The notes below the pieces were generated by a model. That model had not been told where the DNA came from. It searched no databases and saw nothing but the letters and a program-made list of their open reading frames with translations. Both the position numbers and the translations under genes were made by a program. A stretch of 64,000 nt of DNA from Nemertoderma westbladi (lineage: Eukaryota; Animalia; Xenacoelomorpha), in the NCBI GenBank assembly GCA_032718475.1, contig JAUCBJ010007881.1:19760-83759 (forward strand), given 5' to 3'. Positions 18,811 to 60,084 of the stretch are shown piece by piece (the first letter of the stretch is position 1; each line of letters opens with the position of its first letter).

Positions 18811-18919
18811 CTAAAAAATAATAATATCACGGAATATGAGGCGATATTACAGTCGGAAATCCAATATACAGCAAAGCACACTGTTCAGGGAACTGATAGC
18901 ACAGATGTAACCAATGACT

Positions 18920-19530: not shown

Positions 19531-20965
19531 GAATTTACTACAGTATAAAATTGCGTTATATACGGCAAGCGTTGTTTCTTTTAGCGCTGCACACAAAATA
19601 GGGAACGCCCTGCCTCTAAAAATTTTATCGACTACGTCAATCGATGTAATTAAAAAGAGGTAATTAAAAACACATTATGTAAGTTTGGAATATCGATTTT
19701 GATTAGTATGGAATATAAGTTTTTGCAGACAACTCCGTTTATGCCAGTATCACACTCATGTTTTTAAAAATTTTTTAATGATTTTTATTTATTGAGCATT
19801 ATTTATAATAAGTAATCAAACTGAACTACAGTAAATTATTTTTTGTGACGTCTAGTTTGGTAATTTATTTTTGTTAGAATTATCAAACCATGCCCATATA
19901 TAATTATGTTTTTGTTTTTTGGTAACATTTCCGTATAGCACTACATTTTTGTAACATTAATTATTGTTACCATGGCAACAATGTAGAGTTCTAGAACAAA
20001 ATATAAATATTATACGCTATTCTAGAACATCAATAAAATAAAAAATATAAAAAATATAATGTTCTAGAACATATAGCTAGTTATTTTTCAAATTTAAATT
20101 TACAAGTGCACAAAAGTCAAATTAAGCAATTAAATGACAAGTACGGAGAAAAATAAGAAAAATATACGACGCCAGAGCTTTGTGTCAGGAGTGCATTAAC
20201 TATGAAGAGAAATTATCCCTAAAACTGACAGAATACATGTGGAGGCTACATATAAGAAAGGGAAAATTGAACGGATTCCATGAGATATTAAAGGCCAACA
20301 AAAGCCAATAAATACCCAATGGATAAATAAACTAATTAGTTACATCAGTATACAAAAAGTTTAAAATCAATAGGCCTAGTAATTTTAAATGTATTCAGAA
20401 ATTTATTTAAAAATAAATTTATTCTTAGATTGTTACTTTTTCGCTCGAATCTAGACCAAAATCGGGAGAAAAAGTCCTAGGGAAAAAAAGTAACCCATAG
20501 GATTGCATTGATTTTACTTTTTTCCCGGCGAAAAAAGTAAAATAAAATAATTTTGGTGGAATTTCTTAAATTTTGTCAAATGTGTTCAAAGAGCATTGAC
20601 GTAGAAAAAGTTTGCAAATGATTTGAGCAATTGAGCAAAATCCATCCACGCACTCAAAAGTTATGGCAAACTTAGTGCCTGTGCGGCGTACTCAAAAACG
20701 GAACTGAATATCCAATATTGTTTTATGTTCTAAAGCGGTTCTCTACAGTGCAGTAGTTACGTAATAAATATAAGAGAACACTAAATTATTTAACATTGAG
20801 TACGGCAGCATCAGGAGTTGAAGAGTACAATAATTTGAATCACAGTAACTATGGAAGCAATGTAGTAAAATACTGCAGTTCAATTTATTTTGTAACACTA
20901 TATCGCTGTAAGGTTTATTAAATAATTAAGTAACATAAAAGTACCAATTTAAGAATAAAATTACG

Positions 20966-21096
20966 TATTACATGGAAAAAAAAGTAGGACATTTTTTTTC
21001 AATATTCTCCCGACTCTTTATTAACCTCGCTGACGCTCGGTAAATAAAATGCCTTGAGAATAGTGAAAAAAAGTTCTACTTTTTTCCCATGTAATA
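20966..21096. repeat. ~130-bp imperfect palindrome (non-autonomous element remnant); paralog at ~57305-57436
   Basis: TTACATGGAAAAAAAAGTAGGAC...GTTCTACTTTTTTCCCATGTAA arms around a CCTCGCTGACGCTCGG centre. Confidence 0.65.
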
Positions 21097-23182
21097 GATA
21101 ATTATTTTATTAAATTTACTACCTATTTTAAAATTTAAAACAACAACTTAAAAGGCTATATGTTCTAGAACATTATAATTTGATTTTAAAATTTTTTTAT
21201 AATTTTTTCTTGTGAAAAAGGCTATTATCATGAGTTTTTTGTTCTAGATCAAATAATTTTCCTTCTGTAAGTAAGATGGTAGCTAGTAATTTTGATTGTG
21301 TTAGCTTAAGTACTTTTTATAAGATATTAAAAATATAACTTACTTAATTAGAACATCAAATATCAAACTGTGTGGAGAACGAATTGTGTTTGTGTGTTAT
21401 TATAAGTTCTATAATTAAAATTCTGCAGTTTCTAAGAGGTCTAATCATATAAAAAATGACGATATTTTTAATAAGGGTTATATGATGATTCTTGTACTAT
21501 TTAATTTTTTTCAAAAATGTTCTAGAATTAAAGAAAACTGTTCTAGAATAAAAATATTTATCAAAATTGATAGCCAACACGTGTTCTATAACATTTATAT
21601 TTATTAAAAAATAGCAAAATTTAGCTAGTATAAAAAATCTGGTCAATGAGTACCCAAGGTGTACCAATGCCAACTTTTCAACGTTGCCATATTGTTATTG
21701 GAATTTAGAACTGTGCAAGCGCATAGTAGTGGGTCTAATACATTGTACATACACAAACGTAATTAATTATATTAATTATACGAATGTACGAAACGATTGA
21801 TTATACTGTATGGCACTACTACAGTATGTGTACCCATGACCATATTTTTTTACTATAACTAGTTTTGGCTACTTTTTTTTTAGAACTATTCTATTTCATG
21901 TTAGCTATTTGTAAGTAAAAAAATTATGTTCTAGAACAAATATTTTTTGTTCTAGAACATTTTTATATAAAAAAAAATTATTAAAAATTTATTATTATGT
22001 GTAATAAATTGTTTATTTATCTATAAACATTAAAAAATACATATTATCAGGCTAGCTAGTGATTTTCCAAGTTAGCTACTGTATTAAAAAAAAAATGTTT
22101 TTTCAAAATTATATACTTTTATTTTATACTATTCTTTGGAAATCTCAATAATATATGGATCTTTAGAGCACTTTTGTTTTCGTGACGTGGCATTTTATTT
22201 AATGAAAACAGTTAAAGTGTGTAAGCGGATTCAATTCCATACATTACCCACCGAAAATGGGATTAGTGGCATTTTACCAATTATAGTTGGCGAGGTGACA
22301 TTACCAATAATAATGTCACCTCACAACCAAGTAAGGCGATACACGCCGTAAGCCACAGGGATAGTTGAGAGGTCAAACCACCTCAAAGGGGCAAACAAGC
22401 TAGTAAAGACGTGAAAGACCTTCGGCCTAGTATATACATATCCAGACAACAGCTTCAGCAGCCTACGGACGCGGCAACGCGTCCAACACAAACAACGGTC
22501 GGGATGTATACTGCCAACTCAAAGTTCCCGTCACAAAGTGAACCTACTGCTGTAAACATTAGAAAACATTCTAGAATAATATTTTGAAGTATTTATTAAA
22601 GGCAACATATTATTAACATTTTAAGTGTGTGTGTTAAGTGTGTGTTATTTAAAGTGTGTGGTAACAAATAACACCAAACATTAATGAATTAGAAAAAATA
22701 TTCTGATTAATCAGTTTAATACGGAAGGAGTGAGTAAAATATACAAGTAGGCCTAACAAAAGTGCTTTCCCCGAAACGACATCCCTTTTGGCAATTAGGC
22801 CGAACCGACACACCTTTGCCTACGGGAGAGTGTTAGCCAATGAGGAGAGCTTATTTTATTGGAGGAACAGCCAATTAGAAGCCCAGAAATACTCCCATAG
22901 GATGAAACGACACCCCAATTGGAAATATGCAATCCGTACCTGTGCTTGAGACTGTAACTAAGGATGTACCGGTACCCCATAGAATACAATATGTTATATA
23001 TTGAATGTTAGATTGTCGAAGAAATAGGAAAGATGGTAAAATCCCCCCACCCCCCTGAATACTCACATGCTGTAAAACATTATTACATTACATTTTCAGA
23101 CCTCATCTGTACGTATGTATACACCATAGAATAATATTGATAATGATTTTCCTTATGTAAAACCAAGACAAAAGATTAGCCG

Positions 23183-24352
23183 TGTTCGCGCTTTTAGGCC
23201 TTTAGCAGTTTAACCTGCCAATTTTAGTTGTCCTCTTGTTTATAAATCGACTTTAGCCTATATCGATTATTTAGTGTACTGAAGTTACATTAGCCGAAGC
23301 CAGTCTGTGCGCGATCATTCACCCACAGTTAAGGGAGACTGGATTCGGGTGCTTTGAAAGTTATTGCAATGTAGACCTACTGTATTATTCGATTGATCGT
23401 TACTATATAATCTCTGACAATATATTTATTTTCGGGGAAATATTAACAGTTCCTTTAGGACGTGGCGCTTTAAGTATAAAAACAGAGTTATGACTTATAC
23501 TAATCACAACGAGATGGCCACAGAGTTTCGTAAAAAGCGCATTCTTTAGGAGATGCTTTATTATCTGTCACACTACTTCACACGACTTCACACTACTTCA
23601 CACTACTTCGCACTGATCTGCCGACCGTCACTGAATTTGATCATATATAAGGAGGATCGCAACTGACACATGTAGGGATTATGAAATAGCATTTAATTCA
23701 CACAAAAACCACTATAATGTAAGTCGCAATTGCTACCGGTAACCTGTTCCTCTTACCTTCAGTAATCAAGAAGATTGGGGGTTTTATGATTATTTATCGG
23801 TATTCTCCAAATATAACAACATATCCATCAATATAACAACAATTAATAACAGACCGTAAACAGAAGTAAAATAATGCGGTGAACAGTCAGTATGTGTTAC
23901 ATAATGCAGTTATGAAATGTGTATCCAAGTAAGGTAGTTGAATTGAATTGAGTATGATCAGGTGTGAGCCGGTGCTCCAGGATAATAGATTTACGTTCTT
24001 ATAATCAAAGCCATCTAATATTTAGGCCAAAGTCTGAAACTTCCAAAACAGAAGTACAGAAGATTCCAAGCCGGTTCTGAGGCTCAGAAAGGTAAACAAA
24101 GACCGTAATTCATTGCGCGGGTTTCCATAGGCCCCTGTCCAACATAAAGTGAAAATCACTCTGATTGGCTGAATAGGCAGAACAAAGAGGTTCCACATCT
24201 ACAGGAAATCAGCTGACAGATTTCGTCATCTGAGCTCCAATCTTTTAGAGTATTAGGCGCATTGCGGCAAAAATGACTTGTTATGTCCGCAAAAGCACCT
24301 ACACTGCACATTGCGGGAAAAATAACTTGTTATGTCCGCAAAAGCTTTTACA
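23183..24352 (-). repeat. 3' LTR of outer element
   Basis: TGTTCGCG...CTTTTACA; direct repeat of 49656-50819; short purine tract GGGAGCGG precedes it on the minus strand. Confidence 0.95.
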
Positions 24353-27699: not shown

Positions 27700-30600
27700 T
27701 TACGTTGGGGAGTCCCTAGATGTTTGTTGGAATAGGGAGGTGGTCGTGGGAAGAGTATCTTGCCTTCCATAGTTTCCGGATAGCTCTCGGTCTCTTTCCA
27801 GTAAACATAAACGACCAACTGGGCGATTGAGTTGTTGTGTTTCGAATACAATTCCAGGTTTCTTAAAGTTACGTCGCATGACGACGAGTTCTACTCTGTT
27901 GGCCACTCTGTTGGTAACGAAGACGCTGAACTGACAGACTTCATTGGTTATATACTCCAAAACGAGTAAACTTTAGCAGTTCTCCCTTAAGTGAATCATC
28001 CCACGAGTGGTTTTCAAGCCACATTTGTTGCACTAAGCTCCGAGCAACCAATATAACTGGACTAATAAATCCCAATGGATCGAAATAAGTGCTCAGTATA
28101 CTTAGGCAAATCCGTTTAGTTCTAACTGGATTCTCTCGCTGTTTTTACAGGAAAAACAAGATATCTCTCTCCGTGTCCCATTTTAAACCAAGTGTCTTGG
28201 TTTCCGGAAGATCGTCCTTGATGAGGTCCAGATCTTTAACACCTCGGTCTTCTACCGGGATCGATTCCAAAAACTCACGGGAGTTACTAGTGAATTTGGT
28301 TAGTCAAAATCCACCGCGTTGCAAGCACTCCACCGTTCCCTTGGCAACATCAATGGCTTCTTCCACCGATGGGAGGGACTTTAAATTGTCGTCCATGTAT
28401 ATATCCCGTTTGATGTTGTCGATAACCGCTTTAGAGAAGGCGTCTCGGTTGTCATCAGCAGTGGTACGCACTACTGAACAAGCGTTCGAGGGGCTTGAGA
28501 TGATCCTGAAAGCCTGGATGGTCATCCAGTACTCCACCGGTTTTAGGTTGAGGTCTCCTTCAGGCCACCACAGAAATCGTAGGCTGTCTCGATCCCTATC
28601 CAGCGCCTTGACTTGTAAGAACATGCCTTCTATATCCGAAGCGAAAGCGATAGAATATTGCCGTAATCTTAATAGTATTCCCAACAAGGATTGGAGTAAG
28701 TTGGGTCCCGGCAACAATTCGGAGTTCAGGGATTGACCCATGTAAAGGGCGGAGCCGTCGAACACTACCCGGACTTCGTTGGGTTTACCGGGTTTGGGAA
28801 CGTAATGGTGTGTTAGATAATACGTTCTCTCTGTTATGTGTGTTTCTTCCGGTACTCGCTCCGCGTATCCCTTATCGATAAATTTCTTAGCTGGGTTTTA
28901 TACATTTCCCTGGCTGAAACATTGGCTGTAAGACGCCAATGTAGTTGTGCGATTCTCTTTTCCGCTAAAGGTCGGTTATTTATAAAGTTGGGTTCTCGCC
29001 GTCGGAACGGAAGACCAATCTCATAGCGACCTTCATCTTTCAGAAAACGGGTAGTCGTTTCCTGAATCTGCTTGGCTCTCTCTTCCTCGACGGACAAGGC
29101 CTTGTCGTAGGAATTGGGCTCTACGGCTTCTTGAGTAAGGAATCGTACGGCGTGTTCATCGCGAATTTTGTTATTGTATCGATCTATCACTTCGTTTAAT
29201 TCGTCGTTATATGTGAATTGTCCACCTTGTTGATCGATGAGATGGCACAAGTTTACTTGGTTTACCCAAGTTTGATTTTCGGTGAGGAGGTCGATTGTAT
29301 TTTCCTCGTCATATCAGTGGTGGTTTCTCCCTCACTGATTTCTTCTTCCCATTCACTCACCTGATGTATCCTGTCATTAGGGAGTCTTTCCATTAGGGTT
29401 CTATGGGAAGGTCCAGTGAAGAACCAACCTACTCTCGTTCTTCCCGCATACGTTTGTAATGGTTGCGGTCGAGCAGGCCGTTTTTCTAAGGTCTCAAGCG
29501 CTTCGTGCGCGTTTTGGCCGATTAATATCTGAACCCCTGGGTAATCGGTGTTGAATCTAGGGATATCATGTTGCTGGGTAAAATGGTCTTCATCCCAGTT
29601 GTAAGGCTCCACTTGGCTAGTAGCAAAGTTCTTTATCGCCACCATTTTTACCGACCTTACGCTATGTTCTCCTAGTTCATCCTGGGGAGTGAACAACTCA
29701 CCCACATAGTAGTCTGTAGCTACTGTGGATTTCCAAACCTGCATAATTCCTGAAAGGTTCAACTTAGTTCGGAACTTGGGTTGTCCAGCAAAGATGTCTT
29801 CGGCTAGTTCTTTGTCGATGAATTTACCTGTACTGCCGGAGTCAAGGAGGGCGTTTACTATCAGGCTCTTCCCTACACCATGGACTCTCAGTTGCACCAC
29901 AGGGAATTCCCGGATTCCGACGTTAGAAGTTGGCGCTTTCCAAGATGGTTGTCGGTCCGGAATAGTCAGTCGAGGCTCTTCATTGTCGGTTTCAGTCTCA
30001 TATGTAAGTGCTCGATACACCGCGGTGTTTATCATATAACAGGATTCGTTTTCGTCGGAAAATTCGTCCGTGTAGAATCCTTCCATCTCAGAGCTGTGGT
30101 CAGTGTCGTTCACATCACTGAATTGGACATGTAGTTCGGGCTCACTTACCTGACTCGTGCGGGTTCTGTCAAATTCAGTGTGCAGCAAGATATGATGTTT
30201 TGCGCCGCACTTAGCACACCTAGCATCTGAGTAACAGGTCCACCGTTGGTGTCCTCGTCTGAGGCAATTATAACACAACCGCTTATCCCACATGACATCA
30301 CGTCTATCCTTAAGGGATTTCTTCAAGAATTCATCACACCCACTCAAGCGATGTGGCCCGTCGCACAATGCACATTAGGGTTTGATATTACTTACTTTAA
30401 CCTGTGTGGTGTTGTGCAACTTGTTCTTTCTTCGAGCTTTCTTCCATGAATTCTCTTAGGAGACGTACGAGGAGTTGTTACCTGTTCTCTCCTGTCACTG
30501 GTTCGAGACTTAAATTTACTTACGTCCTTTCTCGTTTTATTGACATAATAAGATCTTTCGGTGTCTTTCCCGCTGTTCTCCTCGTATGAGGTTTGGCTTT

Positions 30601-32578
30601 CGCCGTCGTCTGTATAACACACTGGTGTTACCTTTCTCCTAGAAATGGGTTTTTCACTCACCTTATTTTCCGGTGTCTTCTCTCGGGACTGCTTTAGGAG
30701 CTGTAATCTTACCTCTCCATTTAAGAATGACATGAGATCAGCCATGGTAGGGTCCCTTTGTTGCTGGTCCATCATATAGAGAACCCTTTTGTCCCAATGC
30801 ATACCTACTCCACCTTTTGGCAAAGTAGATGCTACGGCTCCAACAACAATAGAACTCTGATATTCCTGAGACTTACCTAGCCAATCTAACTGTCTACATA
30901 TCTCCTGGATCTCATCGAAAAATTCTATAATCCCGCTGCTAAGAAACTTTCGGGGCGCTACTAATTTCGCATACAAATACCTAGCTATGTTAGTCCTATT
31001 ACCATACCTGATGTTTAGTGTATCCCAAACTTGTCTTAATCCATCTGGATGTCCAATAAACTTTAACGCCATTAACTTGGGAGGTCCATCCAGGCACTCG
31101 ATAAGGAATCTAAGTTTCTCTCCGTTGGATAGTACAGAGTTCTGTATATTTTCTTTATAATATTCATTAAAAGGTAACCATTTCATCTCATCTCCATTGA
31201 ACTTGACGACCTCTCCCACCTTTACCGCTTGACGGGCTTCGGTTCTAACCATTTGACGCGTAAAACTTTCTTGAGCCATCGTATTATTTAATATCGAGTT
31301 ATCGGTATATAAATTTCTCGGATTATGATCAGATCTGTATGGGATATCATTGTCAACAGGTTTATAATTACCCTTAATAGGGTTTACTATAGGAGTTTCT
31401 ACTTCACTAGCAGTATAGATGCGTGTAGGCTCCACACCTTGCGCATGAAATACTTCAGACCTAACAGGTTGACACATTGTTACAGGGGGTGGTGGTATAC
31501 CCATTTGTATATTTACTAATTTATCGCGCTCTAAAGCGATACTCTGCTGCACTTCTTGCAACTCTAACCTACTCTCTCTTACTGTTCCCTTTAACTGCTG
31601 AACAGTCCCTTCCAACTCTCGGACCTGCTGGGAAGAAAGTCTTTTATGTTCTTCCAGCTGCCCACGATTCATCCCCCGCCGTCCCTCGTCCACCCACTCA
31701 ACCGCTGCCGCGGGAGCCGCCAACGTGGTAGCCGGGTGACGCGTGGGGACGACGGGAGACAAGTCATTTATGTCTTGCTCGGCGTCCAGGACCGGGAGTG
31801 ATTCAGGGGCTAGTCTACTGGGCACAGGTAGTTTAGTACTGTGCAAAGGGAATTTAGAGTTAGGTTCTGTAAGTATAGGGGTCTCTATCACTGGAGTGAC
31901 TTCAATGACAGGCCTAATTATTTCGGGCTCATCTACTATAGTAGGGAGTCTTTCTATTCTAATAATTTGGTCTGTAGGTTCAGGATTACTTAAATCTACA
32001 CTAGCTAGTTGCCTTTTCACAGCTGGAGGCAAATTAGGCAATTTCTGATGGTGTGGCGTTCTTCTACGTCCGCTGGAACGAGATTTATTTCCTCCACCTT
32101 CGGGATCTGTTGTATCACCCTCATCGGAGGAGGTAAATCCCTGTCTTCTGGGAGTAGATCGACTCAGTAACTGCATCTGAGTAGCTGTCCTTTGTTTCTT
32201 CAAGTAATCTTGTTTCGCCTGAAGGTTCTCCAGCTCTAGTTGGGTAGTCGCTTCAGACGCTTTCAGTACTGCTTCTGCCACTGCCGCCTTTCTTTCAGCC
32301 TCTGCAGCTAATGCCTTCCTCTCAGATTCTGCCGCTGTCGCTGCCGCTGCTGCTTTTCTTTCAGATTCCGCCACTGCTGCTGACCTTCAGTCTTCTATTT
32401 GCCGTTTCTTTAATTGTTCTTCTTGATCCATTGCCATGTGGATGCTTTCATCATATTTAGCCTGCTCCGTGGCTAATATTTCCGCATCTAACGAGTCCAA
32501 CACAAATTTGGCTCCCTCACTATTAGGATGAAGTCCAGCTAGCCGTCTCCTTAGCTCTTTGTCACCTATAAATCGTTG
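27700..32578 (-). pseudogene. gag-pol: Outer element gag (3' part)-protease-RT pseudogene with RNase H and integrase remnants
   Basis: KFNGD...LIECLDG gag core; knuckles CYNCLRRGHQRWTC and CAKCGAKHHILLH; protease LLDSGS; RT SDIEGMFLQV and YMDD; FDPLG; fused FVTNRV and RPVGRLCLLE; multiple stops and frameshifts. Confidence 0.92.
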
Positions 32579-32583
32579 ATAGT

Positions 32584-33104
32584 TGTTAGCTTATTCAATA
32601 AAGTTATAAGCCGATAAGCAATATTGGGAGCCACGAGATTGGGCAATTAACCAACTCGTGCCATCCCAATAAGAATGGGAAGGAAGCACACAATGAGGGT
32701 CAGGGGCCAAACCCCTAACCCAGAGAGAATAGGTGGAGTGAATGGGAACACTCCAAAGGGCGCCAACAAGGGTATCAACCAATCAGAGGGGGGAAAGGCA
32801 TCGATTAGGTAGAGTAACAAGGCCAACCGTGCAATATAGCCACTTGGCAGTAATAATACCAATTCAGTTATCTCAGTGCAATACCGGTGCTAGTTTAGGT
32901 TATTACATAGTTTTAGATAGGGAAGGACCGGGACTTTAGTTACCGTATCCCGCCTTCCATATACGACAATACTATATCTATATCTATATCCGCATATCAT
33001 ATTATATACGACAAACAACATCAGAACTCATTCACTCTTTATACACGGCGGGGACGCGTGAACTAAAACCGGATAAACCGGGATCCCTCTTGGATGCCGT
33101 CACA
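32584..33104 (+). repeat. 5' LTR of inner element (521 bp)
   Basis: Matches 46190-46726 except a 16-bp indel and about three substitutions. Confidence 0.97.
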
Positions 33105-33172
33105 GTAACTAAACCAGCTGCCGCCCTAGATAAACTCAATAACCACTAGCCACCGAAATCTGCAGAAGAGAG

Positions 33173-36100
33173 ATGAGTCGGTCAGGTGACACGACACCGA
33201 CGCGGACCCCGGACGAAGAGCTAACGATCCGCGAGGCCGCAACCAGGCGATACAGGCCCACAACGCCGGACCCATCGGTAACGGGTCATCCGGCAGTTCA
33301 GGACGAGGGGGGCCTGGAACCCGAGGTCGAACCGAGAGAAAGAGAGAGCGAGACGGAGGGAGACGGAGACGAGTCGACACGGGACGGGGGTCGACGCACC
33401 GGTGTCGCCGGCCAGCCACAGGCCGAGGGCGACGAGCGGCCTGCCGAAACGGCGACGGTGGGGCCGACGGTGCGGCCCCGGACGCAGAGAGACGAAGGAG
33501 ATATCGGTACCGATGTCGCCGGCCAGCCACAGGCTGAGGGCGACGGACGGCCCGCCGGAACGGCGACGGTGGGGCCGCCGGTATGACGTCGGACCCGGAG
33601 AGACGGACGAAAGATCGGCGACGAGGACGTCGGGGTTTCTGATCGACTCCGACAGGCCTACAACGCGACCCAAAGACTAATAAAGGACGCTAAGAAGGAA
33701 GGGGCGGAGATAGACGAGGTGAGACTGAGGAAACGACTAGGTGAGTCGGATAGACACTTTAATTACCTAATGCGTTTTGGGCAGAGGGAACTAGCCGAGG
33801 AGAGAGCAAAAGGGGTTGCCAGCGAACTGTTTGAACTATGGGAATGTGGGAGTATGGAACCTAGTGTAGCGTCAGTGTACATAGGGCCATACTTGGTCGA
33901 TGCCCGGGGAGTAAAATTAGTGGGTTGGAACAGACCTGAGGAGGGCGAATCCGAGGCTGACCCCGCGGATTCGGTCTCGTCGGTCAGAGGGAGTTCCGGG
34001 AGGAGGGGGAGAGCTAGTAGATCGGGAAGGCGGAGGGAATCCTCCACAACCGATAAGTCTGCTACATCCTCCGCAAAAGAAAGACGGGTGAGAGAGATAG
34101 ACGCTAGGTACCGTCTCAATCTAGCAGTGCAAGGTAATAGAGAAGTAGGTAGACGGCTAGAGGAAGGGAGAGTGCTGCTGGAGAGGGAAATGGCGTCGAT
34201 TGGAGAGATAAGAGAGAGGGCCGAAAGGGCCGTGAGGAGCCTTAGGGAGTATGATGAAATAGAGTTGAAGGAACAAGAAGAGCGTGTGGCGAGAGAGAAA
34301 AGCGAACGCGAGAAGCGTGAAGCGAAGGAGGAAAGTGAACGCAGAGAGCGTGAAGCGAGGGAGGAGAGTGAGCGTAGAGCGCGTGAGGCGAGGCGAAGGG
34401 AGGGGATTAGGAGAGAGATGAAATTGGCCAAGCAGACCGAAAGGGAGGCTATGGATAAAATAGCAAAAGTGGAGCGTGAGCGAAAAGAATTGGAGAAACA
34501 GCGAGACAAACTCGTAGAGTATGAAGCTGTACACACGCGTGAGGTGGAACTGGCGCAGATGGGGGAGTCTGAGAGCGAGGCTGGCTCGAGTATTTTTGAG
34601 GAGCCGGGGGCCGTGGATACATTTATTAATACCCCACTTACAGGGACCGCACGACAGACCCAAAACTGGTGTGACCGTACGGGCGGGGGGGGTAATAATG
34701 ATAATGGTACAGTAGACGTGGTTAATATTAATAGTACCGTATGGGACAATTCTAATCAAACCTTTATTGCAGGAAATACTTTACCTAGTGGTAGTAATTT
34801 AAATTTAAATCAGAACATTCCTAATATTAATGTAGAAAATAATTCTAATATTAATGTAGCTACGCAAAATAATCCAATTAATCAAAGTAATAACCCAAAT
34901 TCGAACTTACAAAATAATTTTAAGTAATGCAATAACACAAAATAATCCAAATAACTTAAATAATTCAGCGAGCCCGAATTTACAAAATAATTCAGATAGT
35001 GTAGTCGCGCAAGATAATTCAAATGATTTTATTCCGAACGAACAAATTAATTCCGTTTCCAATACGGGTGCTATTAATGTAAACACGTCGGGCGTGTATG
35101 GCCAGACAGACGAGGGCCTGGTAGGCCACGTAGTTGGTAGGCAGGGAATAGCTGGGTTAGGTAGACCCGGCGAGGGCCTGGTAGGCCACGTAGTTGGTAG
35201 GCAGGGAGTAGCTGGGTTAGGTAGACCCAGCGAGGGCCTGGTAGGCCACGTAGTTGGTAGGCAGGGAGTGGCTGGGTTAGGTAGACCCAGCGAGGGCCTG
35301 GTAGGCCACATAGTTGGTAGGCAGGGAGTAGAGGGCCTGGTAGGCCACGCAATAGCAGAGGGAGAGGCGGGGGTGAATAGACCCGACCGCGGTAGGGTTG
35401 ATGTGTCGACTGGAGAGGGATATAGTAGCGGGGTGAGGAGTAGCGAAGTTAGATGTGGCGAGTGGGGGGGGGGGGGCTACGAGAACCCCACAACAGCGAG
35501 TTAGCGGCGAAAGGGGGGGCAGAGAGTGTCCCACAGCCGTCAGCGGATAATGCGCGGGCCAAAATAGGTAAACCGCAACAACCGGCGACGGAAAGTAATA
35601 GGGGGATTGCGAGTATCCCCAGCGGCGTGCGACCGAGCAGAGAGAGACAGGTTGACGTCGTAAGAGGGCGGACGAAGCGTCGAGCCCGATCAGAAGAGGG
35701 AAGAAGAACAGTGGGGTTTAACCGGGAGGTCGACGAGAGATCTCACGAGCGGGAATACTCCACTGAAAGGAGAAGAAGAGAAGACAGTAGTAGAGGTATC
35801 GCCGCGAACGATAGAAGAGCGAGGACGGATAGTGAGCCGTCGGTAGTTGAGATGAGAACGGAGAGTCAGTGGGGTCGGACTCCGGGAGATTGCCGTCGCC
35901 CCGGAGAGATGCGACCCGGCGAGGCGCACTACGCGCCGATGGAGGGGTACGCGATGTACCGGTACGAAGACGAGAACAGTAGAGGGGGGGGGTCGAAGAG
36001 AAACTTTCCGATGGAATACACCTATTGATCGAGAATACGGTAGCCGCGGGGAGGATTATTCGAGAAGAATAAACTTCGATCCCGAGCGACACATGCAGAC

Positions 36101-36328
36101 TGTAGGACATACTGTAGGCCTTACTGCACATACCATAGGCCATACTGAGAGAGGCAATGTAGGCGATAGGATGGCGTGGACAACGTGATTAAACCCGGAA
36201 GTCGCGGAATACATACCGGCGAGTAGGCCAGAAGCTGATAGGCCTATACCGGTACCAGCACAGCAGTATGACTACAGCATGCAGGGACATAACATATACC
36301 CAGGGGAGGGGGGAATTATTGCGGATAG
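33173..36328 (+). pseudogene. gag: N-terminal gag region of inner element, interrupted
   Basis: ATG at 33173 shares a frame with 33719-34927 across one TGA (33584). Further frame changes at ~34920 and in poly-G runs (~35465, ~35985), plus stops near 36030-36190. Contains DPADSVSSV, an E/R coiled coil and an Asn-rich tract. Confidence 0.75.
35111..35349 (+). repeat. 60-bp coding tandem repeat (~4 copies) in gag
   Basis: EGLVGHVVGRQGVAGLGRPS repeated. Confidence 0.9.
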
Positions 36329-39300
36329 GTGTATGGGCCCCAACATATTAACATCAACCCCAGTACCAAACATACCGGTGGGGGGGGGGGACAGGGTGAC
36401 ATTCCCCCATCACAATATCAACAATATACCCCGATAGGGGCAAGAACAACGAGACCCTTGGATGAGAATAGGTCGTGTGATACAGACATATGGAGGGGGC
36501 CGCTACCCCCGATGACATACCCAAGTCAGAGAAAGTCAAGAAATAGGACAGACGGAACGCACCAGACAGGAGAAACTATGCAGCACCCATCGAATCCATT
36601 GGAAGCGCAGGCGATGGGGATGGCCACGTTGATCGATGCGTTGAAAACGAGGATCGAGTTACCACCCGTGGAACCATTCAAATTCGATGGGAGCAGGCCG
36701 GAAGAATATCTACAGTTTCGGCGCATGTATAGTAACGAAATACTAACAAAGAACTTGACGCAGGCGGAGTGCCTAAAGTATCTGCAAGTGTACACGGGAG
36801 GCCCAGCATACGACATCGTGAGGCAATATCAAGGAATAGAGGGCGGCTTCACGACAGCATGGCGGGCACTGGATAGGGAATACGGGCACCCGGCCAAGAT
36901 CATCAGGCAGACGCTGAGAGGCATAACATCGGGTGGCCTACAGGATAATCCCGTTAGCATTAAGACGTTCGCTAACAAAGTCGAAAAGGCGCTAATCGTG
37001 CTGAAGACGCTAGACGCGCCGTACGAGCTCAATGCGTCCAACAACATCACCACGATAGCGCAGGCACTACCAAACTGGCTGCGCAACAAGTGGAGAAAAA
37101 TCGCCTTCTCCACTCGAGATAAGAAGGGTGCGGAACCGGGTTTAGAAGAAATGTCAAACTTCTTAAACTACGAGGCTGAACTAATAACTGACCCAGTCTA
37201 TAGCGAAGACAGCCTGGGAAAGGGACCGAAGACAGACTACCATAGACCGAAACCAGAGCACAACACATCGAACGCATTACCGAGACTCAGGCAATCATTG
37301 CCATATGCAGCGACGCAGGGGACTGCAAGTCCACAGCTAGCCGAGGATAAGACAACATCATGGAACGGACAGGGAAACAATAATAACACGAATAAACATA
37401 ACCCCAGTACGTCCAATAGGCAAAACCCAAACAATAAGAATAGTAGGGACTTTGGTACGAACGCAACTGCGATACGCAATGCACTGTATAAAGAGGGCTA
37501 CGACCCAAAGAGCAAATGTCAGCTACACGCAAATGCGCTTCATCAAACTATGAACTGCAGGTACTGGCAGGCGCTACCTAGGCAAGATCAGATAGACTAC
37601 GCGTTCAGCAATAAAATCTGCTCGCGATGTGTAATGAGTGGACATAGAGCAAGGGAGTGCAAGGAGAAGCCAATGAAATTTGGTCAAAGGAGAGGCCAAA
37701 CGATGGCGACGAGCACAGTAGGGGCGAAGAAGAGAGGAACGGTGCTACTTGGAGTAGTACCAGTACGAGTGATCGGGGAAGGCAATCGATCAGTAACAAC
37801 ACTAATGCTGGTTGATAGTGGAGCTGCCTTCACATTAGTCGAGGAATGGGTGGCCGAGGAGATAGGATTGAGAACGAGGCCAAGCAGGATGGCGGTAACA
37901 ACCATCTCTAGCAAAGATGAGATCCTGGAGATGAGAACAGGACGGTGCGCAATTGCAGCAGTGGCACCAGGATGCGACTATGGGGCAACCATCGACCCCA
38001 TTCAAGTGATAGAGTCAATTAATATCAATGCCAGGCGGCCAACCAACATCGAGGTCGAGCAGTATAAATTCCTGGACAACATTGACTTCTCAATCCCAGA
38101 CGTGGACGTTAGGAAGGTATCCATCATAGTAGGTATGGACTGCCCAACGGCCCACGAAAGAATGCAAACGGTCTTCGGCGAAGACAAGCAGAGTGACCCG
38201 GTGGCCATATTAACACCATTCGGGTGGACGCTGAGTGGTCCAATCAAGAGCAAGATACCATTTAGGATGTCGGAGACATCAGGATGCATGTTCGCGGGAA
38301 CAATGCAGGAAATGGGTGACGAGGGAGCAGAGGAGCAGCTCAAAAGACTGCTCAGACAAGATTTCGAGGGACTGAAAGAAACCGGGGTCGGGACCTCGGT
38401 AGAAGACAAGCAGGCTTTACAAAGCGTGGAGGAATCGATGACATGCAATGAGGGGCGGTATACTATAGGAATGGTATGGAAACTACCGAAGATACCGCTG
38501 CCCGACAATAGGGGGATGGTACTCACGAGACTCCGCAAGCTGAAACAAACACTAAAACGGAGCCCCGAGAAGAATGAGTACATCCACAGGACGATTAAGA
38601 AGTACGTCGAGAAAGGATGGGCCGTGGAGTTACCGGTCGACGAGCCGAACACGGATAGGACATATTACCTGCCACTGCACGTGGCTTTAGATCCAAAGAA
38701 AGGTAAACTAAGGATGGTAGTCGACGCATCGGCAAAGACCGACGGAAAGTGCTTAAACGACTACCTGTTAGAAGGCCCAAACATATACAATTCGGGCATA
38801 GAGGTGTTACTTAGATTTAGAAATGGGAAACACGCCTTCACGTGTGACATAGAAGGCATGTTCAACCAAGTCCGTGTAACGGAAGAAGATAGCGACAGTC
38901 AACGCTTCTTATGGTATAACGGCGAGGAAGAACCGTCGATAATACCGGCATATAAGATGGTAGTACAGAACATGGGGGCCAAGTCGTCTTCATTTACGAC
39001 GACTATGGCAGTGAGAGACACAGTAAAGGGGAGGGAAGATAGATACAGCAGTAGGGCCGTCGATATGATTCGACGCGGCTTCTACGTAGACGACGGAATG
39101 GAGTCTGGAAATACGGTTAAGGAGATACTGGATACAGGGCGCGAGGTTCGCGACATCCTAAAAGGATCCGGCTTTAACCTGACCAAATTCCAATCCAGTT
39201 CGGAAGAATTTATCAAAGCCATAGAGGACAGGAAACCAGAATCGACCATGGATAATCCCACAACAGCCAAAGGGCAGGACATGGCGATTAAGAGAACGGA

Positions 39301-41722
39301 ATCCCAGCAGAAGGCATTGGGAATCGTGTGGGATAGAAAGACAGACGAACTGAAGTATCAGCTGAGCCAGGAGGGCGCAGACATCCACACGAAGAGGGGC
39401 TATGTATCGTATATAGCAAGGATATACGATCCCCTAGGCCTAGCATCCCCATTATTAGTCACGGGGAAACAGATACTCAAGAGAGTATACAAATTGAAAG
39501 ATGAGTGGGACGTAGAGGTACCAGAGGAAATCAAGAAACAGTGGAGCAAGTGGACAGGAAACTTGGAGAAGATGGGAACATACAACATGCCAAGGGTGTA
39601 TTTCCCGGATGGGAACATGACGAATCTGGACCTACACATGTTCTCCGACGCGTCGTTGGAAGCGTACGGAGCGGCACTCTACTTAGTACAACGAGAGGGG
39701 GCTCATAAGCCAAGACTAGCCTTTAGTAAAGCAAAGTCAACGCCACCAGATTCAGCATCAGTTCCCAAGTTAGAATTGACAGCTGCGAGACTAGGAGTAA
39801 GAGCCACAGCCTACCTAGTGGATACTATTCCCAACATAGTGGAGACACACTACTGGACGGACTCCATGGTAGTGCTTGGTTGGCTACATAACGAAAGGAC
39901 GAGATACCCGATATTCGTCGCGAATAGAGTGGACGAAATAAGGGCGAGCACAGAACTGGAAAGGTGGCACTACTGCCCAACAGACGAGAACCCAGCGGAC
40001 TTGCTGTCGAGGGGCGTGGAACGCCACACTTTCCTGAAGAAGGAAGTATTGTGGCAACATGGGCCACAATTTCTGAGCGATAGGGAGGCCTGGCCGCCGA
40101 TGAGGAAGGTGGACCCGGGCTCGGAAGTAGTATCAGAAGGAGAAGAGGGAGATTCAGAGGGAGAAGAGATATACTCCCAGATGGTGAGGGAGATTAGGGA
40201 CGTGCAACCAGGACGGGAACTGTGCGATAACCCGACGGATAAACTCCTCAGCTACAGTTCTAGTTGGTATAAGACCAAGAAACTAGTGGCGTACTGGAGA
40301 GCCTTCGGGAATTTCCTTGCGGGAGTCGGCAAGGACAAGAAGATCAGGACAACCATAGATCTGGAAGGAGCGGCCAAGGCAGTGATCCGCTATGAACAAC
40401 GGAAGAACTACGGCGACGAGGTGGAACGCATCGGTAACCAACAGCACCTCCGACGGGACAGCGAGCTGATTACGCTGTCGCCACAACTCAATGACGATGG
40501 GATTCTAGTAATGAATTCTAGGGTGGGATACAACAACAGCATAGTCGTACCACCGAAACCCATCATCATTCCTACAGGATCGCCAATAGTCCACCAGATC
40601 ATATGGGACTCCCACAAATCGATATTACATGGGGGCACCAACCGAACCCTCACAGAGATAAGGAGGACCTATTGGGTCAAACAACTGAGGAAGAAGGTAA
40701 AAGCAGTAGTGGGGCAGTGCCAGACCTGCCGACGAGCGAAGAAGGAGCGAGCTGTACAGGAGATGGCGCCACTACCGGCGAGTAGGGTAAGACAGCACGA
40801 CCCGCCATTTACGCATTGCGGTGTGGACATGTTCGGGCCGATAAAGATCAAAGTGATGCGACACACAGAGAAACGCTACGGCATTATCTTCGTATGCAAC
40901 AATACGCGGGCGGTAGGGATAGAACTCGCCCAAGATGCAACCGCATCAGCGTTCATTAACGCCTTAGAAAGGTTTAGGGACCGCAAAGGTGGGACGATCG
41001 CAGTGATATACAGCAACAACGGCACCAACTTTGTGGGCGCAGAGAGTGAGATGGCAGAGGCCTTGGACATCTTGGAGGGAGAAGAAGTCAAGGCAGCCAT
41101 GAGGAGACGACAAGTAAAGTGGGAGAGAAGGACGCCGTATGCACCACATACACTAGGATGCGTCGAGAGACTGGTGGGCAGTTCAAAGCGTCTAATGACG
41201 AAGCTAATGAACACCCACATGGTCACTGAGGACGTCTTACGGACAGTACTTGCGAAGTGCGAGGGGATCATTAATAGCAGACCGCTATATCCGGAGAATG
41301 ATGACCCTGAGTCACTAGACGTGCTGACGCCTAGCCATTTCCTGATGGAAAGGCCAGTGACCATCGATATGCGGGGTGTAGACCCAGATGACATACACTC
41401 CCGCCAAAGTTGGAAAGTCGCAAAGGCAATAAGCGCAGAGTATTGGAGGAGGTGGGTCGAGGAATACCTACCCACACTCCATAAACGAAGCAAGTGGAGG
41501 AAGTCAAACAGGGAGTTAAGAGAGGGAGATCTCGAAATCGTTACGGATGATACTATCATCAACAACCAATGGCGGTTGGCGAGAGTTGTAGGCACCTACT
41601 CCGACGAGGACGGAAGAGTCCAATCGGTAGAAGTGCGGATAGGTGGAAAGATAGGTGCGAAGGACAGAAAAACCTACAGGAGAGCTGTAGGCAAATGCTG
41701 TCTATTAGAAGGGGCACCTTAG
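36329..41722 (+). CDS. gag-pol: BEL/Pao gag-pol polyprotein (gag core, Zn knuckle, protease, RT, RNase H, integrase)
   Basis: KFDG gag core; CSRCVMSGHRAREC; LVDSGA; CDIEGMFNQV and YVDD; YDPLG; HMFSDAS, PKLEL, YWTDS, ENPADLLSRG; H-x4-H...CQTC; GVDMFGP, SNNGTNF (D>N), ERLV; RAVGKCCLLE. Confidence 0.96.
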   Translation: MYGPQHININPSTKHTGGGGGQGDIPPSQYQQYTPIGARTTRPLDENRSCDTDIWRGPLPPMTYPSQRKSRNRTDGTHQTGETMQHPSNPLEAQAMGMATLIDALKTRIELPPVEPFKFDGSRPEEYLQFRRMYSNEILTKNLTQAECLKYLQVYTGGPAYDIVRQYQGIEGGFTTAWRALDREYGHPAKIIRQTLRGITSGGLQDNPVSIKTFANKVEKALIVLKTLDAPYELNASNNITTIAQALPNWLRNKWRKIAFSTRDKKGAEPGLEEMSNFLNYEAELITDPVYSEDSLGKGPKTDYHRPKPEHNTSNALPRLRQSLPYAATQGTASPQLAEDKTTSWNGQGNNNNTNKHNPSTSNRQNPNNKNSRDFGTNATAIRNALYKEGYDPKSKCQLHANALHQTMNCRYWQALPRQDQIDYAFSNKICSRCVMSGHRARECKEKPMKFGQRRGQTMATSTVGAKKRGTVLLGVVPVRVIGEGNRSVTTLMLVDSGAAFTLVEEWVAEEIGLRTRPSRMAVTTISSKDEILEMRTGRCAIAAVAPGCDYGATIDPIQVIESININARRPTNIEVEQYKFLDNIDFSIPDVDVRKVSIIVGMDCPTAHERMQTVFGEDKQSDPVAILTPFGWTLSGPIKSKIPFRMSETSGCMFAGTMQEMGDEGAEEQLKRLLRQDFEGLKETGVGTSVEDKQALQSVEESMTCNEGRYTIGMVWKLPKIPLPDNRGMVLTRLRKLKQTLKRSPEKNEYIHRTIKKYVEKGWAVELPVDEPNTDRTYYLPLHVALDPKKGKLRMVVDASAKTDGKCLNDYLLEGPNIYNSGIEVLLRFRNGKHAFTCDIEGMFNQVRVTEEDSDSQRFLWYNGEEEPSIIPAYKMVVQNMGAKSSSFTTTMAVRDTVKGREDRYSSRAVDMIRRGFYVDDGMESGNTVKEILDTGREVRDILKGSGFNLTKFQSSSEEFIKAIEDRKPESTMDNPTTAKGQDMAIKRTESQQKALGIVWDRKTDELKYQLSQEGADIHTKRGYVSYIARIYDPLGLASPLLVTGKQILKRVYKLKDEWDVEVPEEIKKQWSKWTGNLEKMGTYNMPRVYFPDGNMTNLDLHMFSDASLEAYGAALYLVQREGAHKPRLAFSKAKSTPPDSASVPKLELTAARLGVRATAYLVDTIPNIVETHYWTDSMVVLGWLHNERTRYPIFVANRVDEIRASTELERWHYCPTDENPADLLSRGVERHTFLKKEVLWQHGPQFLSDREAWPPMRKVDPGSEVVSEGEEGDSEGEEIYSQMVREIRDVQPGRELCDNPTDKLLSYSSSWYKTKKLVAYWRAFGNFLAGVGKDKKIRTTIDLEGAAKAVIRYEQRKNYGDEVERIGNQQHLRRDSELITLSPQLNDDGILVMNSRVGYNNSIVVPPKPIIIPTGSPIVHQIIWDSHKSILHGGTNRTLTEIRRTYWVKQLRKKVKAVVGQCQTCRRAKKERAVQEMAPLPASRVRQHDPPFTHCGVDMFGPIKIKVMRHTEKRYGIIFVCNNTRAVGIELAQDATASAFINALERFRDRKGGTIAVIYSNNGTNFVGAESEMAEALDILEGEEVKAAMRRRQVKWERRTPYAPHTLGCVERLVGSSKRLMTKLMNTHMVTEDVLRTVLAKCEGIINSRPLYPENDDPESLDVLTPSHFLMERPVTIDMRGVDPDDIHSRQSWKVAKAISAEYWRRWVEEYLPTLHKRSKWRKSNRELREGDLEIVTDDTIINNQWRLARVVGTYSDEDGRVQSVEVRIGGKIGAKDRKTYRRAVGKCCLLEGAP

Positions 41723-41849
41723 TAAAGTTACAGAAAAGTTTAGTCGTCCAAGTTTTGGACTGAGGGGGGTGGGATTGAGGGCGAGACGCCCTTCCCACAA
41801 ACAAAATAATAAAATAAAAAAAAATAAAATAGTACATGGTAGGTACGCA

Positions 41850-42450
41850 GTTAGTAGGCAGAGAGTTAGTAAGAAGGTACGTAGTACCTAGTTAGTTAGT
41901 TAGTTAGGAGGTACGTAGTACCGCCAGTTAGAGAGTTAGTTAGAGGGTACGTAAGTACCGTTAGTTAGTTAGTTAGTTAGTTAGGAGCTACGTAGTACCG
42001 CCAGTTAGAGAGTTAGTTAGAGGGTACGTAAGTACCGTTAGTTAGTCAGAGAGTTAGAGGGTACGTAGTACCGCTAGTTAGTTAGAGTTAGAGGGTACGT
42101 AGTACTGATAGTTAGTTAGAGAGTTAGAGGGTACGTAAGTACCGCTAGTTAGTCAGAGAGTTAGAGGGTACGTAAGTACCGCTAGTTAGTTAGAGAGTTA
42201 GAGGGTACGTAGTACCGATAGTTAGTTAGAGAGTTAGAGGGTACGTAGTACCGATAGTTAGTTAGAGAGTTAGAGGGTACGTAAGTACCGCTAGTTAGTT
42301 GGAGGATTAGAGGGTACGTAAGTACCGCTAGTTAGTTAGAGAGTTAGAGGGTACGTAGTACCGATAGTTAGTTAGAGAGTTAGAGGGTACGTAAGTACCG
42401 TTAGTTAGAAGAGTTAGAGTTAGAGGGTACGTAGTACCGTTAGTTAGAAG
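41850..42450 (+). repeat. ~36-40 bp tandem array, ~16 units, each with hairpin GGTAC-GTA(A)-GTACC
   Basis: Unit approximately GTTAGTTAGAGAGTTAGAG-GGTACGTAGTACC-GCTA, between pol and the extra ORF. Confidence 0.92.
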
Positions 42451-42934
42451 AGAGAGAGTAAGAGGTAAAAGGGGATATAGATATAGGTATTAGTTAGCAG
42501 TTAGTAGAGAGAGGGGGGCATATGAGTACAGCTGGATAAATCGTGTGGCCACACGACGCATACTGCTGTACTGCATAGACCCACAGAGTAGGCCAGAATG
42601 TGGATTAGAGAATAGAATAATCCATAGGCAGTAGTAAGTAGTAGGACAGTAGAATCAAAGTAAATGGATAAATAAATAGAATAGGGCTGAAAGTTGTAAA
42701 ATAGTGGCAACATAAGGGAAGTTATTCTAGAACATAATAAAAGTAACGGACAGAAATTGTAAATTACGCTCATTTACTAGCTTCAAAATTAATTAGGAAT
42801 AATTTAGGTTAAAAGGCGCAGTTAAGTAGGAAATAGGCCATTATCGAACTGTACAGAACATCCTAGATACATCACTCATCTGTATTGCGCCTTGGTAAGG
42901 CACCACCTTGCAGGTGAGCGAGTGAACGTTCGGA

Positions 42935-45484
42935 ATGGCGAGTAAGTTGATCAGAAAGAGAAAGGCGGAGTAAGGAGGAAAGGAGATACTGGTGGATTTC
43001 ACCGAGAGGCATCCGGAAGAGAAGACGAGAGGATACTACGAGAGGTTGGAAAGGGGTCACGCGGCACGAGCGCTGCAGGATCACTTCCGGGAGGCGCACG
43101 AACAGCGGCTGGTCGGGACCTACGGGACCCCGTCGCTGGACAACGCGATCTTCCAACACTTCCACTACGTGGTGAAAGGGGACGAGGCGAAGTTCGGGAT
43201 TCCGAAATACCCGAGGGAATCACCGAGGAAGGACTGGAAGAGATTCATAGAGTCCGTCAACAGTGGAGGATATATGATCCTAGATGACGAGGGAACCGTG
43301 GAAGACGAAGCGGGTTCGAGACGAGGAACGGCAGGGTCGGCCAGGACCATACTCCTACATTTGGCCGCGCCAAATGGGGACATCTTCTTATTCGACCTAG
43401 GGACGTATGGGAAGAAGGACGGGCCGAAATTAGACCGATTACCGAAAGCGGTACAAGTCTTAGTAAGAGAGAAGTCGACGACGAAAGTGGGATCGGCGAT
43501 TCGCGAGGACGCGGAGAGGATCATCGGTCCGGACGCCACCAACCTCCTGGATATGCAGAAAGTCTTTATGGCTATGACGGCACCGGATGGATTGGGGGTA
43601 GTCGAAAACGCAGGCCAATGCGGGGCGGTGGCGATGGACCAATTATTGGGGCTCGTATGCCACAAACCGATGGACTGGGGGAAGTTTAGGGAAGAATACG
43701 GAGCAGAACCAGCGAACTCGCTAAAGTGGGGAGCGAGACAGGGAAAGCAGGAGGTATATCAGTTCCGCAGGGGAGCGATAAAGGTATATCAGAAGCGATA
43801 TATCCTGCAGGAGGACTGGATGATGATAAGTTTGCTTAACTTATTCATGACCGTGATTATCGAGAGGGAACCAGGGGCATTTCTGTTATCGGGATCACCC
43901 CTAAGCTACAGGAGAGCCTTTAAAGTGGCCTTTGACGGTCTGGTAGACCACCCGGGGCTGAAGGGCGAGTCGGTGTACTACAACAGCCGACATCTGGTAG
44001 ACGGGGAGACAGATACACCGTATCAGAGATGGGAGCAGCTAGAGACGGATAGACGAGAAGCAAAGCGACTGGAAGAAGTCGCTAGACGGGAGAGGATAGA
44101 AGCAGAGGAGAGGGAAGAGGAGGCCAGGACACAGAGTTACGGCTTCGAGGAACAGGCGGGCCTAGACGAACTTCATTGGACTTCGTCAGGGAGTTCGGGG
44201 GAGTCTCTAGGGCGAGAATTGGGATGGACGGTGGGATCGCCGAAACAGTCGACGTCGGGGTTGCAAACGATGCCCATACCAGCGGGCGCCGAGGGCGACC
44301 AACCGCCAAGGAAATTAAGGGAGCTAGAGGGATGGAGAGCTACGGGCGAGAGCCAAGGCGGGAAGGGACATAGTGGATCCATCGGGATACCGGGATTGGA
44401 GACACTACCAGAAGAGGAGGACGACGACGACGAGTTCGGAGAGATGCCGCCCATCGAGAGGATAGGCCACTCGGACACGGACTGGGTTGGCGGAAGGGTG
44501 GTGACGGCCAGTGGGGCAAGGGCCTTCTGGAACAGATCCGGCAAGCGGACCTGGGTGCACGAGGAGCCGGCGATGGATTTCGCGGGGAGCACCATCAGGT
44601 TGGGCGAGCAACCGGGGACGGCACCACGGATAGTATTCGGGGAGACGATGCCCGAGAGGGGCAGAGAGATCGACGTAGATAGAGAGACCAATGTAGAGAA
44701 GTTCGCCTACCAGCGACTCCACAGACCGCGGAGATCGCTTGGGACGAAAGACGAGGTGGGACGGGAGACATTGGTACTCGGCTGCGACTACTGTGGGAGA
44801 CAGACCCATCGGGAAAGCAGCTGCCTATACCGGTTCCAAAAGGGAACCTTGTGTCTCTACTGCAGAGAACCAAGCCACAGGATGGTGGCGTGTCCACGGT
44901 TGCATAACCGATGTCCAAAGTGCCACTTTCGGGGACACTACGGACGCGAGTGCGACTGGATGAACGACGAGGAGAAGTTCACAAGATTCGAGGAGTGGGC
45001 CGACGTCGGGGCCATGATGCGCCAGTGCATGAAGGCCCAGGAGTTCAAGTGGGGTTTCTTCCTTATCAATCAGGAGACTCACATGGAAATCATAAAGCGG
45101 AGGCTACCGTTTACCTACCAAGAGGTAGCAACGGCGGCGTCGTACGCTGGAGTGATGAACACGCAAAGGTATCTGGACAGGTGGACGCCGGAGAACCGAA
45201 GGGAGTTTAGGGATTTCTTGGCGGAGCACGTACCAAAGGCAATGAAAATGATCCTATGGGACGCCACTAGAGGGAGACAACCGGGCCACTCTGAGGGGCC
45301 ACCGGCGAAGCGATATCGGGCACTAATAACACCAGCGCCCAAGGAGCCAACGACCGGGATCAGCAAGGAAGTGGCGGCGAAGGTCCGAAAGCAGAAAGCG
45401 GATGATGCCAGAGGGACGGTGATAACCAAGAAACGACCCAGGGAAGAGGATGCCAGGGGGAACTACCCCCGGAGGAACAGATAG
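42935..45484 (+). CDS. Accessory protein: DEDDy (WRN/EXD/mut-7-like) 3'-5' exonuclease domain plus three CCHC zinc knuckles
   Basis: ExoI-like YMILDDEG; ILLHLAAPNGDIFLFDL; LPKAVQVLVREKSTTKVGSAIREDAERI (ExoII); LLDMQ; ExoIII-like QKRYILQED; CDYCGRQTHRESSC, CLYCREPSHRMVAC, CPKCHFRGHYGREC. The in-frame ATG at 42935 is separated from the 830-aa frame by one TAA (42971-42973). Confidence 0.75.
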
Positions 45485-47709: not shown

Positions 47710-47845
47710 GATTTATTTTACAGTTGAATGCCTATTACTATAACGACAGTTAAAGCAAGTCTAGTAATTCAGTATCAACTGTAAGCCTAGTAATTAATTA
47801 CCGATACCGTTACTCAGTGTAACGTGATATATATATAATATATTA

Positions 47846-58945: not shown

Positions 58946-59142
58946 GAACAAAGTAATTCCTAAGTATCAATAAATATAAATGCGCCACAGATGTAAAAAT
59001 ATGTGATGTAGATAATCCCTAATTCTCCCCCTCCCGCTTAGGAATAAAAATCTATAAGAAATATAAAAATAATTACTTTGATTTTTTATTCAAAAAGCGT
59101 TAAAAAGTGATAATAATCTCCGCCGGTAAGTAAAAATATTTA

Positions 59143-60084
<942 letters not shown>

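Follow-up and report, generated by a model that had tools for sequence, protein, structure and literature searches.

The inner of two nested BEL/Pao retrotransposons in the analysed window (the whole 64-kb stretch of DNA examined here) very probably primes minus-strand DNA synthesis with its own RNA, through some form of self-priming. On balance we lean, by a modest degree, towards a primer that is a spliced junction, generated by removal of a 41-nt GT..AG segment (32899-32939) from the LTR transcript, with RNA start site, splicing, cleavage and priming all predicted from the sequence. The edges of the LTRs are defined, the sequence directly following the 5' LTR lacks a TGG and is complementary to the LTR itself, and the same layout, with covariation, is found in BEL/Pao relatives. 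More generally, it seems somewhat likelier than the contrary that a large part of BEL/Pao uses no tRNA and has its primer built by host splicing of an LTR intron, with only the spliced 5' end being competent for priming and the unspliced 3' LTR transmitting the intron; the window would then hold a miniature of this design (41 nt), with the additional effect that splicing takes away one arm of a hairpin that hides the primer. A splice-built self-primer appears to be well supported by covariation at the level of the superfamily, and less surely so for the window copy.

Self-comparison and reading of the sequence place the LTR element at 32584-46726, nested in an older BEL/Pao element of opposite strand, with the following components:

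32579-32583 (no strand): left target-site duplication ATAGT, identical to the 5 nt at 46727-46731
32584-33104 (+): 5' LTR, 521 nt, TGTTAG...GTCACA, direct repeat with 46190-46726 (99.4% over 507 nt)
33105-33123 (+): primer-binding site (PBS), non-TGG, flush with the LTR edge
33587-35504 (+): 5' coding region, broken into frames 33587-34927 and 34860-35504, without Pfam match
36329-41722 (+): BEL/Pao gag-pol frame, 1797 aa, with DUF1759, protease, reverse transcriptase with YVDD, Peptidase_A17, integrase H2C2 and DUF5641
42974-45484 (+): additional frame of 836 aa, located 3' of pol and 5' of the 3' LTR
46181-46189 (+): polypurine tract (PPT), directly 5' of the 3' LTR
46190-46726 (+): 3' LTR, 537 nt, containing the unspliced primer region at 46511-46565
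46727-46731 (no strand): right target-site duplication ATAGT, matching 32579-32583

The inner insertion is young, since its LTRs differ by just 3 substitutions over 507 aligned nt and by one indel, which gives the 3' LTR 16 additional nt at its beginning. Because the two LTR copies, the ATAGT duplications and the purine tract all define it, the 5' LTR edge is fixed independently of any argument concerning the PBS. Gag-pol domains in the order PR-RT-RH-IN, together with LTRs, target-site duplication and PPT, identify the element as BEL/Pao, and homologues of its pol share this domain set, the nearest protein relatives in the protein libraries searched being 37% identical; no relatives were found among the viral contigs searched. 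The integrase core motif of the pol frame is imperfect in this copy, which, given the fragmented 5' coding region, is probably not autonomous.

Tandem repeats are located after pol (41839-42454) and, with a 60-bp unit, in the 5' coding region (35107-35331), while an 11-bp inverted-repeat hairpin (46152-46180) abuts the PPT on its upstream side. The extra 836-aa frame returned no sequence homologue, Pfam match or PDB match, and a single-sequence fold reached a pLDDT of 31. Its N-terminal 340 aa score 0.92 to clusters of 3'-5' exonucleases (PF01612) by language-model features alone, and Cys/His knuckle-like motifs are present close to its C-terminus. An accessory nuclease would be unusual in a BEL/Pao element, and a role of this frame in primer processing is pure speculation.

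Complementarity between the LTR and the primer-binding site

The elements of the 5' LTR that bear on priming, predicted ones included, are the following:

32835-32869 (+): weak TATA-like motif (32835) and initiator-like TCAGTT (32864-32869), with a candidate RNA start at about 32866
32885-32898 (+): predicted upstream half of the primer and end of predicted exon 1, pairing with PBS positions 5-14 and beyond
32899-32939 (+): predicted 41-nt GT..AG intron, donor TAG/GTTATT, acceptor ..CTTTAG/, with a TTTAG direct repeat at its borders, identical in the 3' LTR copy
32917-32962 (+): hairpin in the unspliced RNA, with the 9-mer and acceptor in its 14-nt loop (-15.6 kcal/mol, z -1.64)
32935-32943 (+): 9-mer TTTAGTTAC, whose final 4 nt are the predicted 3' end of the primer
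33000-33033 (+): best-scoring pair of TATA-like (33003) and initiator-like (+1 at 33030) motifs, 3' of the primer in a TATATC-rich tract
33048-33073 (+): U5 segment pairing, in folds, with 32944-32954 beside the primer and holding a PBS-like decoy for the 9-mer

The original prediction that the element has no TGG-type PBS was borne out, as GTAACTAAA (33105-33113) abuts the 5' LTR and not a single TGG occurs within the first 100 nt. A TGG at 33092 was rejected as a PBS, since both LTR copies contain it and it takes part in a hairpin. The exact reverse complement of GTAACTAAA reported at 32935-32943, TTTAGTTAC, is indeed present; it represents the sole 9-nt match and is not extendable to 10. The pairing is also flush with the LTR edge as claimed (offset 0), a flush run of at least 9 occurring in 6 of 3000 dinucleotide-shuffled LTRs, and one at any offset from 0 to 5 in 18 of 3000. 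The AU-rich 9-mer duplex is ordinary by energy, with 26 of 200 shuffles being equally stable against the first 14 PBS bases, and the match is one base under the 10-bp criterion that has been applied to plant self-primers (PMC6317226). A screen of the LTR region for tRNA-like or Rfam matches returned none, and no tRNA gene was found in the 64-kb window.

The 9-mer straddles a candidate splice acceptor, TTTAG/TTAC, and PBS complementarity resumes 41 nt upstream of its end segment, across the GT..AG segment. All GT-AG junctions in the LTR that span 30 nt or more were scored for PBS pairing, in addition to the unspliced registers, and the best register overall was that produced by removal of 32899-32939, with 10 perfect and 13 of 14 pairs at offset 0 to the LTR edge. 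Alternative donors for the same acceptor, at 32809 and 32733, were discarded, giving just 8 and 7 pairs. Among shuffled LTRs, 13 of 14 pairs were reached through a GT-AG junction in 2 of 3000 and through any route in 3 of 3000, while in a laxer, matched energy null covering all junctions and registers 15 of 400 shuffles were as good as the spliced register of the window. The duplex energy of this register is -17.9 kcal/mol, versus -7.7 kcal/mol for the 9-mer. The hairpin that holds the 9-mer in its loop is not unusually stable (matched by 17 of 200 shuffles), and its 5' arm is intronic with respect to the predicted intron.

The candidate donor ranks in the top 11% of the 19 GT sites in the LTR and is without GTRAG, and the acceptor is weak, with 6 pyrimidines in 15 positions and 69% of the AG sites of the LTR being equally good. 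With its 41 nt, the predicted intron falls short of the 50-90 nt that are usual for the smallest animal introns, although it exceeds a 30-nt floor (PMC13644364). The one host intron that is readable in the window (n=1, predicted boundaries) has a GTT donor and a TTTTAG acceptor. Since a TTTAG repeat bounds the 41-nt segment, the latter could also have originated by insertion or duplication, without splicing.

Folding assigns primer:PBS probabilities of 0.98 and 0.70 to spliced leaders ending 20 and 35 nt beyond the LTR, respectively, as compared to 0.0 for unspliced leaders, and the short spliced leaders are predicted to form two flanking helices, one that immediately follows the primer on its 3' side and a short one beside the PBS. 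In spliced leaders extended to 33175 or 33250 the probability collapses to 0.02-0.06 and the three-duplex-like structure is lost, for which reason folding is not decisive.

With regard to the promoter, the TACATAG (32904-32910) and TTAGTT (32936-32941) motifs invoked in the original prediction are present, yet are outranked by other promoter-like motifs in the LTR. A scan for TATA and initiator pairs was performed by consensus patterns, with the six best pairs printed; neither these motifs nor the 32835/32866 pair are among those six. The supposed initiator TTAGTT would more simply be read as a 3' splice site. No AATAAA or ATTAAA was found 3' of the acceptor in the window, a signal that 6 of 6 relatives possess.

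According to the splice-junction model, a capped RNA with a predicted start upstream of about 32885 would lose 32899-32939 as a cap-proximal intron, and of the first 14 bases that follow the LTR, 13 would be matched by the joined exons. Cleavage 3' of C32943, postulated by analogy to the RNase H cleavage of Tf1, would place the resulting 3'-OH exactly at the LTR edge. Synthesis of strong-stop DNA would be confined to 32944-33104 before the jump to the 3' LTR, and it is consequently proposed that the intron is passed on by the 3' LTR at the end of the RNA, where it stays unspliced (46511-46565). Weak splice sites would, at a guess, suit splicing that is restricted to the cap-proximal copy.

The same layout in BEL/Pao relatives

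Relatives were fetched with an alignment of the window pol and 30 homologues, which yielded 121 loci, i.e., 77 from metagenomes (from the best 80 of 491 confirmed) and 44 from a genome collection. Of these, 79 reached 4 kb or more and matched pol, pol was flanked by a repeat in 40, and both copies fixed the LTR end in 17; 12 of the 40 repeat-bearing loci were left out as contig-end overlaps alone, and 81 of the 121 were without a usable LTR pair. All 17 fixed-end loci were scored, six being TGG-type (TGG at most 7 nt from the edge) and eleven, like the window element, being without TGG, and a tRNA-type PBS is accordingly treated here as not general to the protein-defined BEL/Pao family.

A pairing run of at least 10 nt with their own LTR was found in seven of the eleven non-TGG loci, versus none of the six TGG-type loci, whose longest such pairing is at most 7 nt (Fisher p 0.017, or 0.026 with the sister loci L099 and L100 counted once, kinship being otherwise uncorrected). 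Five of the seven (L050, L086, L088, L099 and L100) pair across an intron over 11-14 nt, with GTAAGT, GTGAGT or GTACGT as donor, while L024 and L082 have an unspliced 11-nt match that was equalled in 1 of 300 shuffles each. Furthermore, L096 forms 10 of 11 pairs across a canonical intron, and no own-LTR pairing was found in the non-TGG loci L012, L023 and L057, whose ends are unclear. Shuffles of single loci equalled the spliced runs in 15, 0, 18, 5 and 14 of 300 cases, and in 57 of 300 for L096; given these modest values, the weight in the relatives rests on the donors, each of which ranks in the top 1-12% of the GT sites of its own LTR, and on covariation.

Covariation between PBS and LTR, which the original prediction had put forward as a check, is observed between L099 and L100. 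These differ at 2 of 35 positions near the donor (-1 and -3), and the PBS partners at positions 10 and 12 change too, such that the pairs are kept; a further PBS difference is located at position 17. For L099, the donor homologous to that of L100 was used, the top-scoring donor being another GT of equal run length. L050, L086 and L088 share the PBS start GTA and the primer end TAC with the window element. Perfect TATA boxes are positioned upstream of the donor in L099 (2 of 2) and L100 (2 of 3). When the spliced leaders of six relatives were folded at two lengths each, four attained a primer:PBS probability of 0.59 or more at one length or both, while the value was close to 0 for L096 and L099.

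Eleven additional loci have a known LTR start and an end inferred post hoc. Nine of them exhibit spliced matches of 10-12 nt (six of 11-12 nt by a filtered scan, and three spotted by visual inspection, for which 10-11 nt were confirmed), one an unspliced match and one nothing. Within this set, L035 parallels the window element, with a 38-nt intron and an AG/GTT donor. L052 (3667-3851) and L096 (5855-6016) have a common end of exon 1, while their exon 2 and PBS differ at partner positions, L096 retaining one mismatch.

A quick tree, which contains no named clade references, tentatively positions the window pol amid 21 non-TGG rows on a branch 2.58 long (support 86, unstarred), with the six TGG rows and one spliced-type row (L107) outside the non-TGG group. 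No starred group of this tree includes the window pol, as regards its placement with Pao, BEL, Tas, Sinbad, Suzu or Sailor. Of note, 44 loci, several with both LTRs, are located in contigs filed as bacterial or archaeal genomes (L081, L082, L086, L088, L096, L099, L100, L104-L106, L120 and others), and most likely represent contamination from animal hosts.

Alternative explanations and known systems

The LTR match and the independent BEL/Pao relatives support the tRNA-independent self-priming of the original prediction, although the Tf1 geometry that it envisaged, in which an RNA starting at about 32935 uses its first 9 nt as primer, is disfavoured. Self-priming from unspliced RNA, whether by such a start, by display of the 9-mer in the 14-nt hairpin loop of a longer RNA, or by pairing of 32889-32903 through a one-base bulge, appears rather unlikely. 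It would dispense with a short and weak intron, the 9-nt flush match is rare in shuffles (just 6 of 3000) and lies in a hairpin loop, L024 and L082 have unspliced 11-nt matches, and the bulged register reaches -12.9 kcal/mol with a pairing probability of about 0.65 in one fold. This register, however, terminates in a G-U pair, and the 9-bp duplex is worth merely -7.7 kcal/mol. A start at 32935 gives a primer:PBS probability of 0.01-0.11 in folds that exclude pseudoknots, because the PBS-like U5 segment (about 33048-33068) captures the 9-mer, and it leaves the complementarity upstream (32885-32898) unexplained.

It is quite improbable that there is no self-priming at all, the PBS being read by a tRNA fragment or other host RNA, or having been lost from this partly decayed copy, with the LTR match arising by chance. 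Half-tRNA primers are known in Ty1/copia lineages (PMC6317226), half-tRNA-primed elements such as Osser and Bianca having a PBS that matches an internal tRNA segment, and the energy-based nulls are at just p about 0.04-0.13, but the count-based nulls stand at 0.07-0.6%, the LTR region is without tRNA-like or Rfam match, and a non-TGG PBS with self-complementarity is found in seven of eleven relatives versus none of six TGG-type loci, with compensatory changes in addition. A main start at about 33030, 3' of the primer, would imply that the primer is supplied in trans, spliced or not, either by a second RNA copy through its 3' LTR end or by solo-LTR transcripts. The pair at 33003/33030 is the best of its kind, and Tf2 has two starts, one of them downstream of the self-primer (PMC5341516). 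Nevertheless, the motif is located in a TATATC-rich tract where such matches come easily, L099 and L100 carry the perfect TATA boxes upstream of their donors, and cutting the 3' LTR end would presumably deprive that RNA of the repeat on which strand transfer relies; we consider this arrangement very unlikely.

A BEL-type element of C. elegans, Cer7, has reportedly been proposed to carry its own tRNA-like primer sequence, unlike the primer region of the window, which has no tRNA-like feature. Self-priming has been shown for Tf1 and proposed for Tj1, Tf1/sushi, Tcn1 and copia TAR (PMC4600332, 10.1101/2022.12.06.519325, PMC6317226, PMC6934838). Tf1 RNA pairs with its PBS through its first 11 nt, and the RNase H cleavage site is between nucleotides 11 and 12 (PMC7175516), in a three-duplex structure that has been described (10.1101/2022.12.06.519325). 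Similar to Tf1/Tf2 of S. pombe, Tj1, Tf1/sushi and Tcn1, all Ty3/gypsy chromoviruses, the window element has no tRNA PBS and a post-LTR sequence complementary to its own LTR RNA, and helices reminiscent of Tf1 flank the primer duplex in its predicted short spliced leaders, an arrangement lost in longer ones. In contrast to Tf1/sushi, it has BEL/Pao domains, no chromodomain hit and no Ty3/gypsy chromovirus polyprotein; its primer, moreover, is predicted to lie within the RNA (about 37 nt, given a start at 32866) and to span an intron, unlike the first 11 nt of the RNA in Tf1, for which priming is demonstrated where here it is predicted. A precedent outside Tf1/sushi is the TAR/Houba/Osr-1 Ty1/copia lineage, where self-priming was likewise predicted from LTR-PBS complementarity (PMC6317226); these are plant copia elements with a contiguous match of at least 10 bp, for which the available text mentions no splice junction (PMC6317226), in contrast to the window element.

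The ICTV description assigns Belpaoviridae a PBS of 18 nt, complementary to host tRNA-Arg or -Gly, along with a genome of 4.2-10 kb (PMC8742986). In agreement with it are LTRs within 0.2-1.2 kb, a PPT, BEL/Pao gag-pol and a 5-bp target-site duplication, as well as the TGG-type PBS of six relatives; the window element departs from the description, as available, by having no TGG PBS, spanning 14.1 kb and possessing the extra 836-aa frame (PMC8742986). A term search found neither PBS nor tRNA in the main text of the BEL/Pao survey PMC3118150 and the Sinbad paper PMC554778, and the available texts of PMC3601003, PMC13524379, PMC5341516 and PMC8220671 do not mention self-priming or splice-built primers in BEL/Pao. 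The statement in the original prediction that no self-priming report is known for BEL/Pao thus agrees with the literature searched, a body that leaves most subscription journals out of reach and absence from print unproven. If true, the present reading would add a third LTR superfamily to self-priming, beyond Tf1 (shown) and copia TAR (predicted), and would explain BEL/Pao copies scored as PBS-less by PBS-based annotation. A splice-made primer would furthermore couple the onset of reverse transcription to the host spliceosome, as a control point for both host and element.

Neighbouring features of the window

The outer BEL/Pao element, host of the inner insertion, occupies about 27977-32583 and 46727-47712 (-) and has a truncated pol; a partner LTR was sought in the window and not found, which makes this element unusable as a comparison. 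An EGR/Krox-type zinc-finger host gene is located at 59140-60084 and 54841-55194 (-), and its last coding exon recurs, almost unchanged, at 18457-18810 (-) as part of a more extensive duplication. This EGR-like gene identifies the host as an animal, at no finer level. Rearranged duplicated blocks pair 14818-15168 with 22822-23183, 15163-17115 with 50820-52737 and 23183-24352 with 49656-50819, an 18-bp tandem array included, and a 350-nt repeat bounds 14818-23183. The end of the window is occupied by a 33-bp tandem array (62238-64000).
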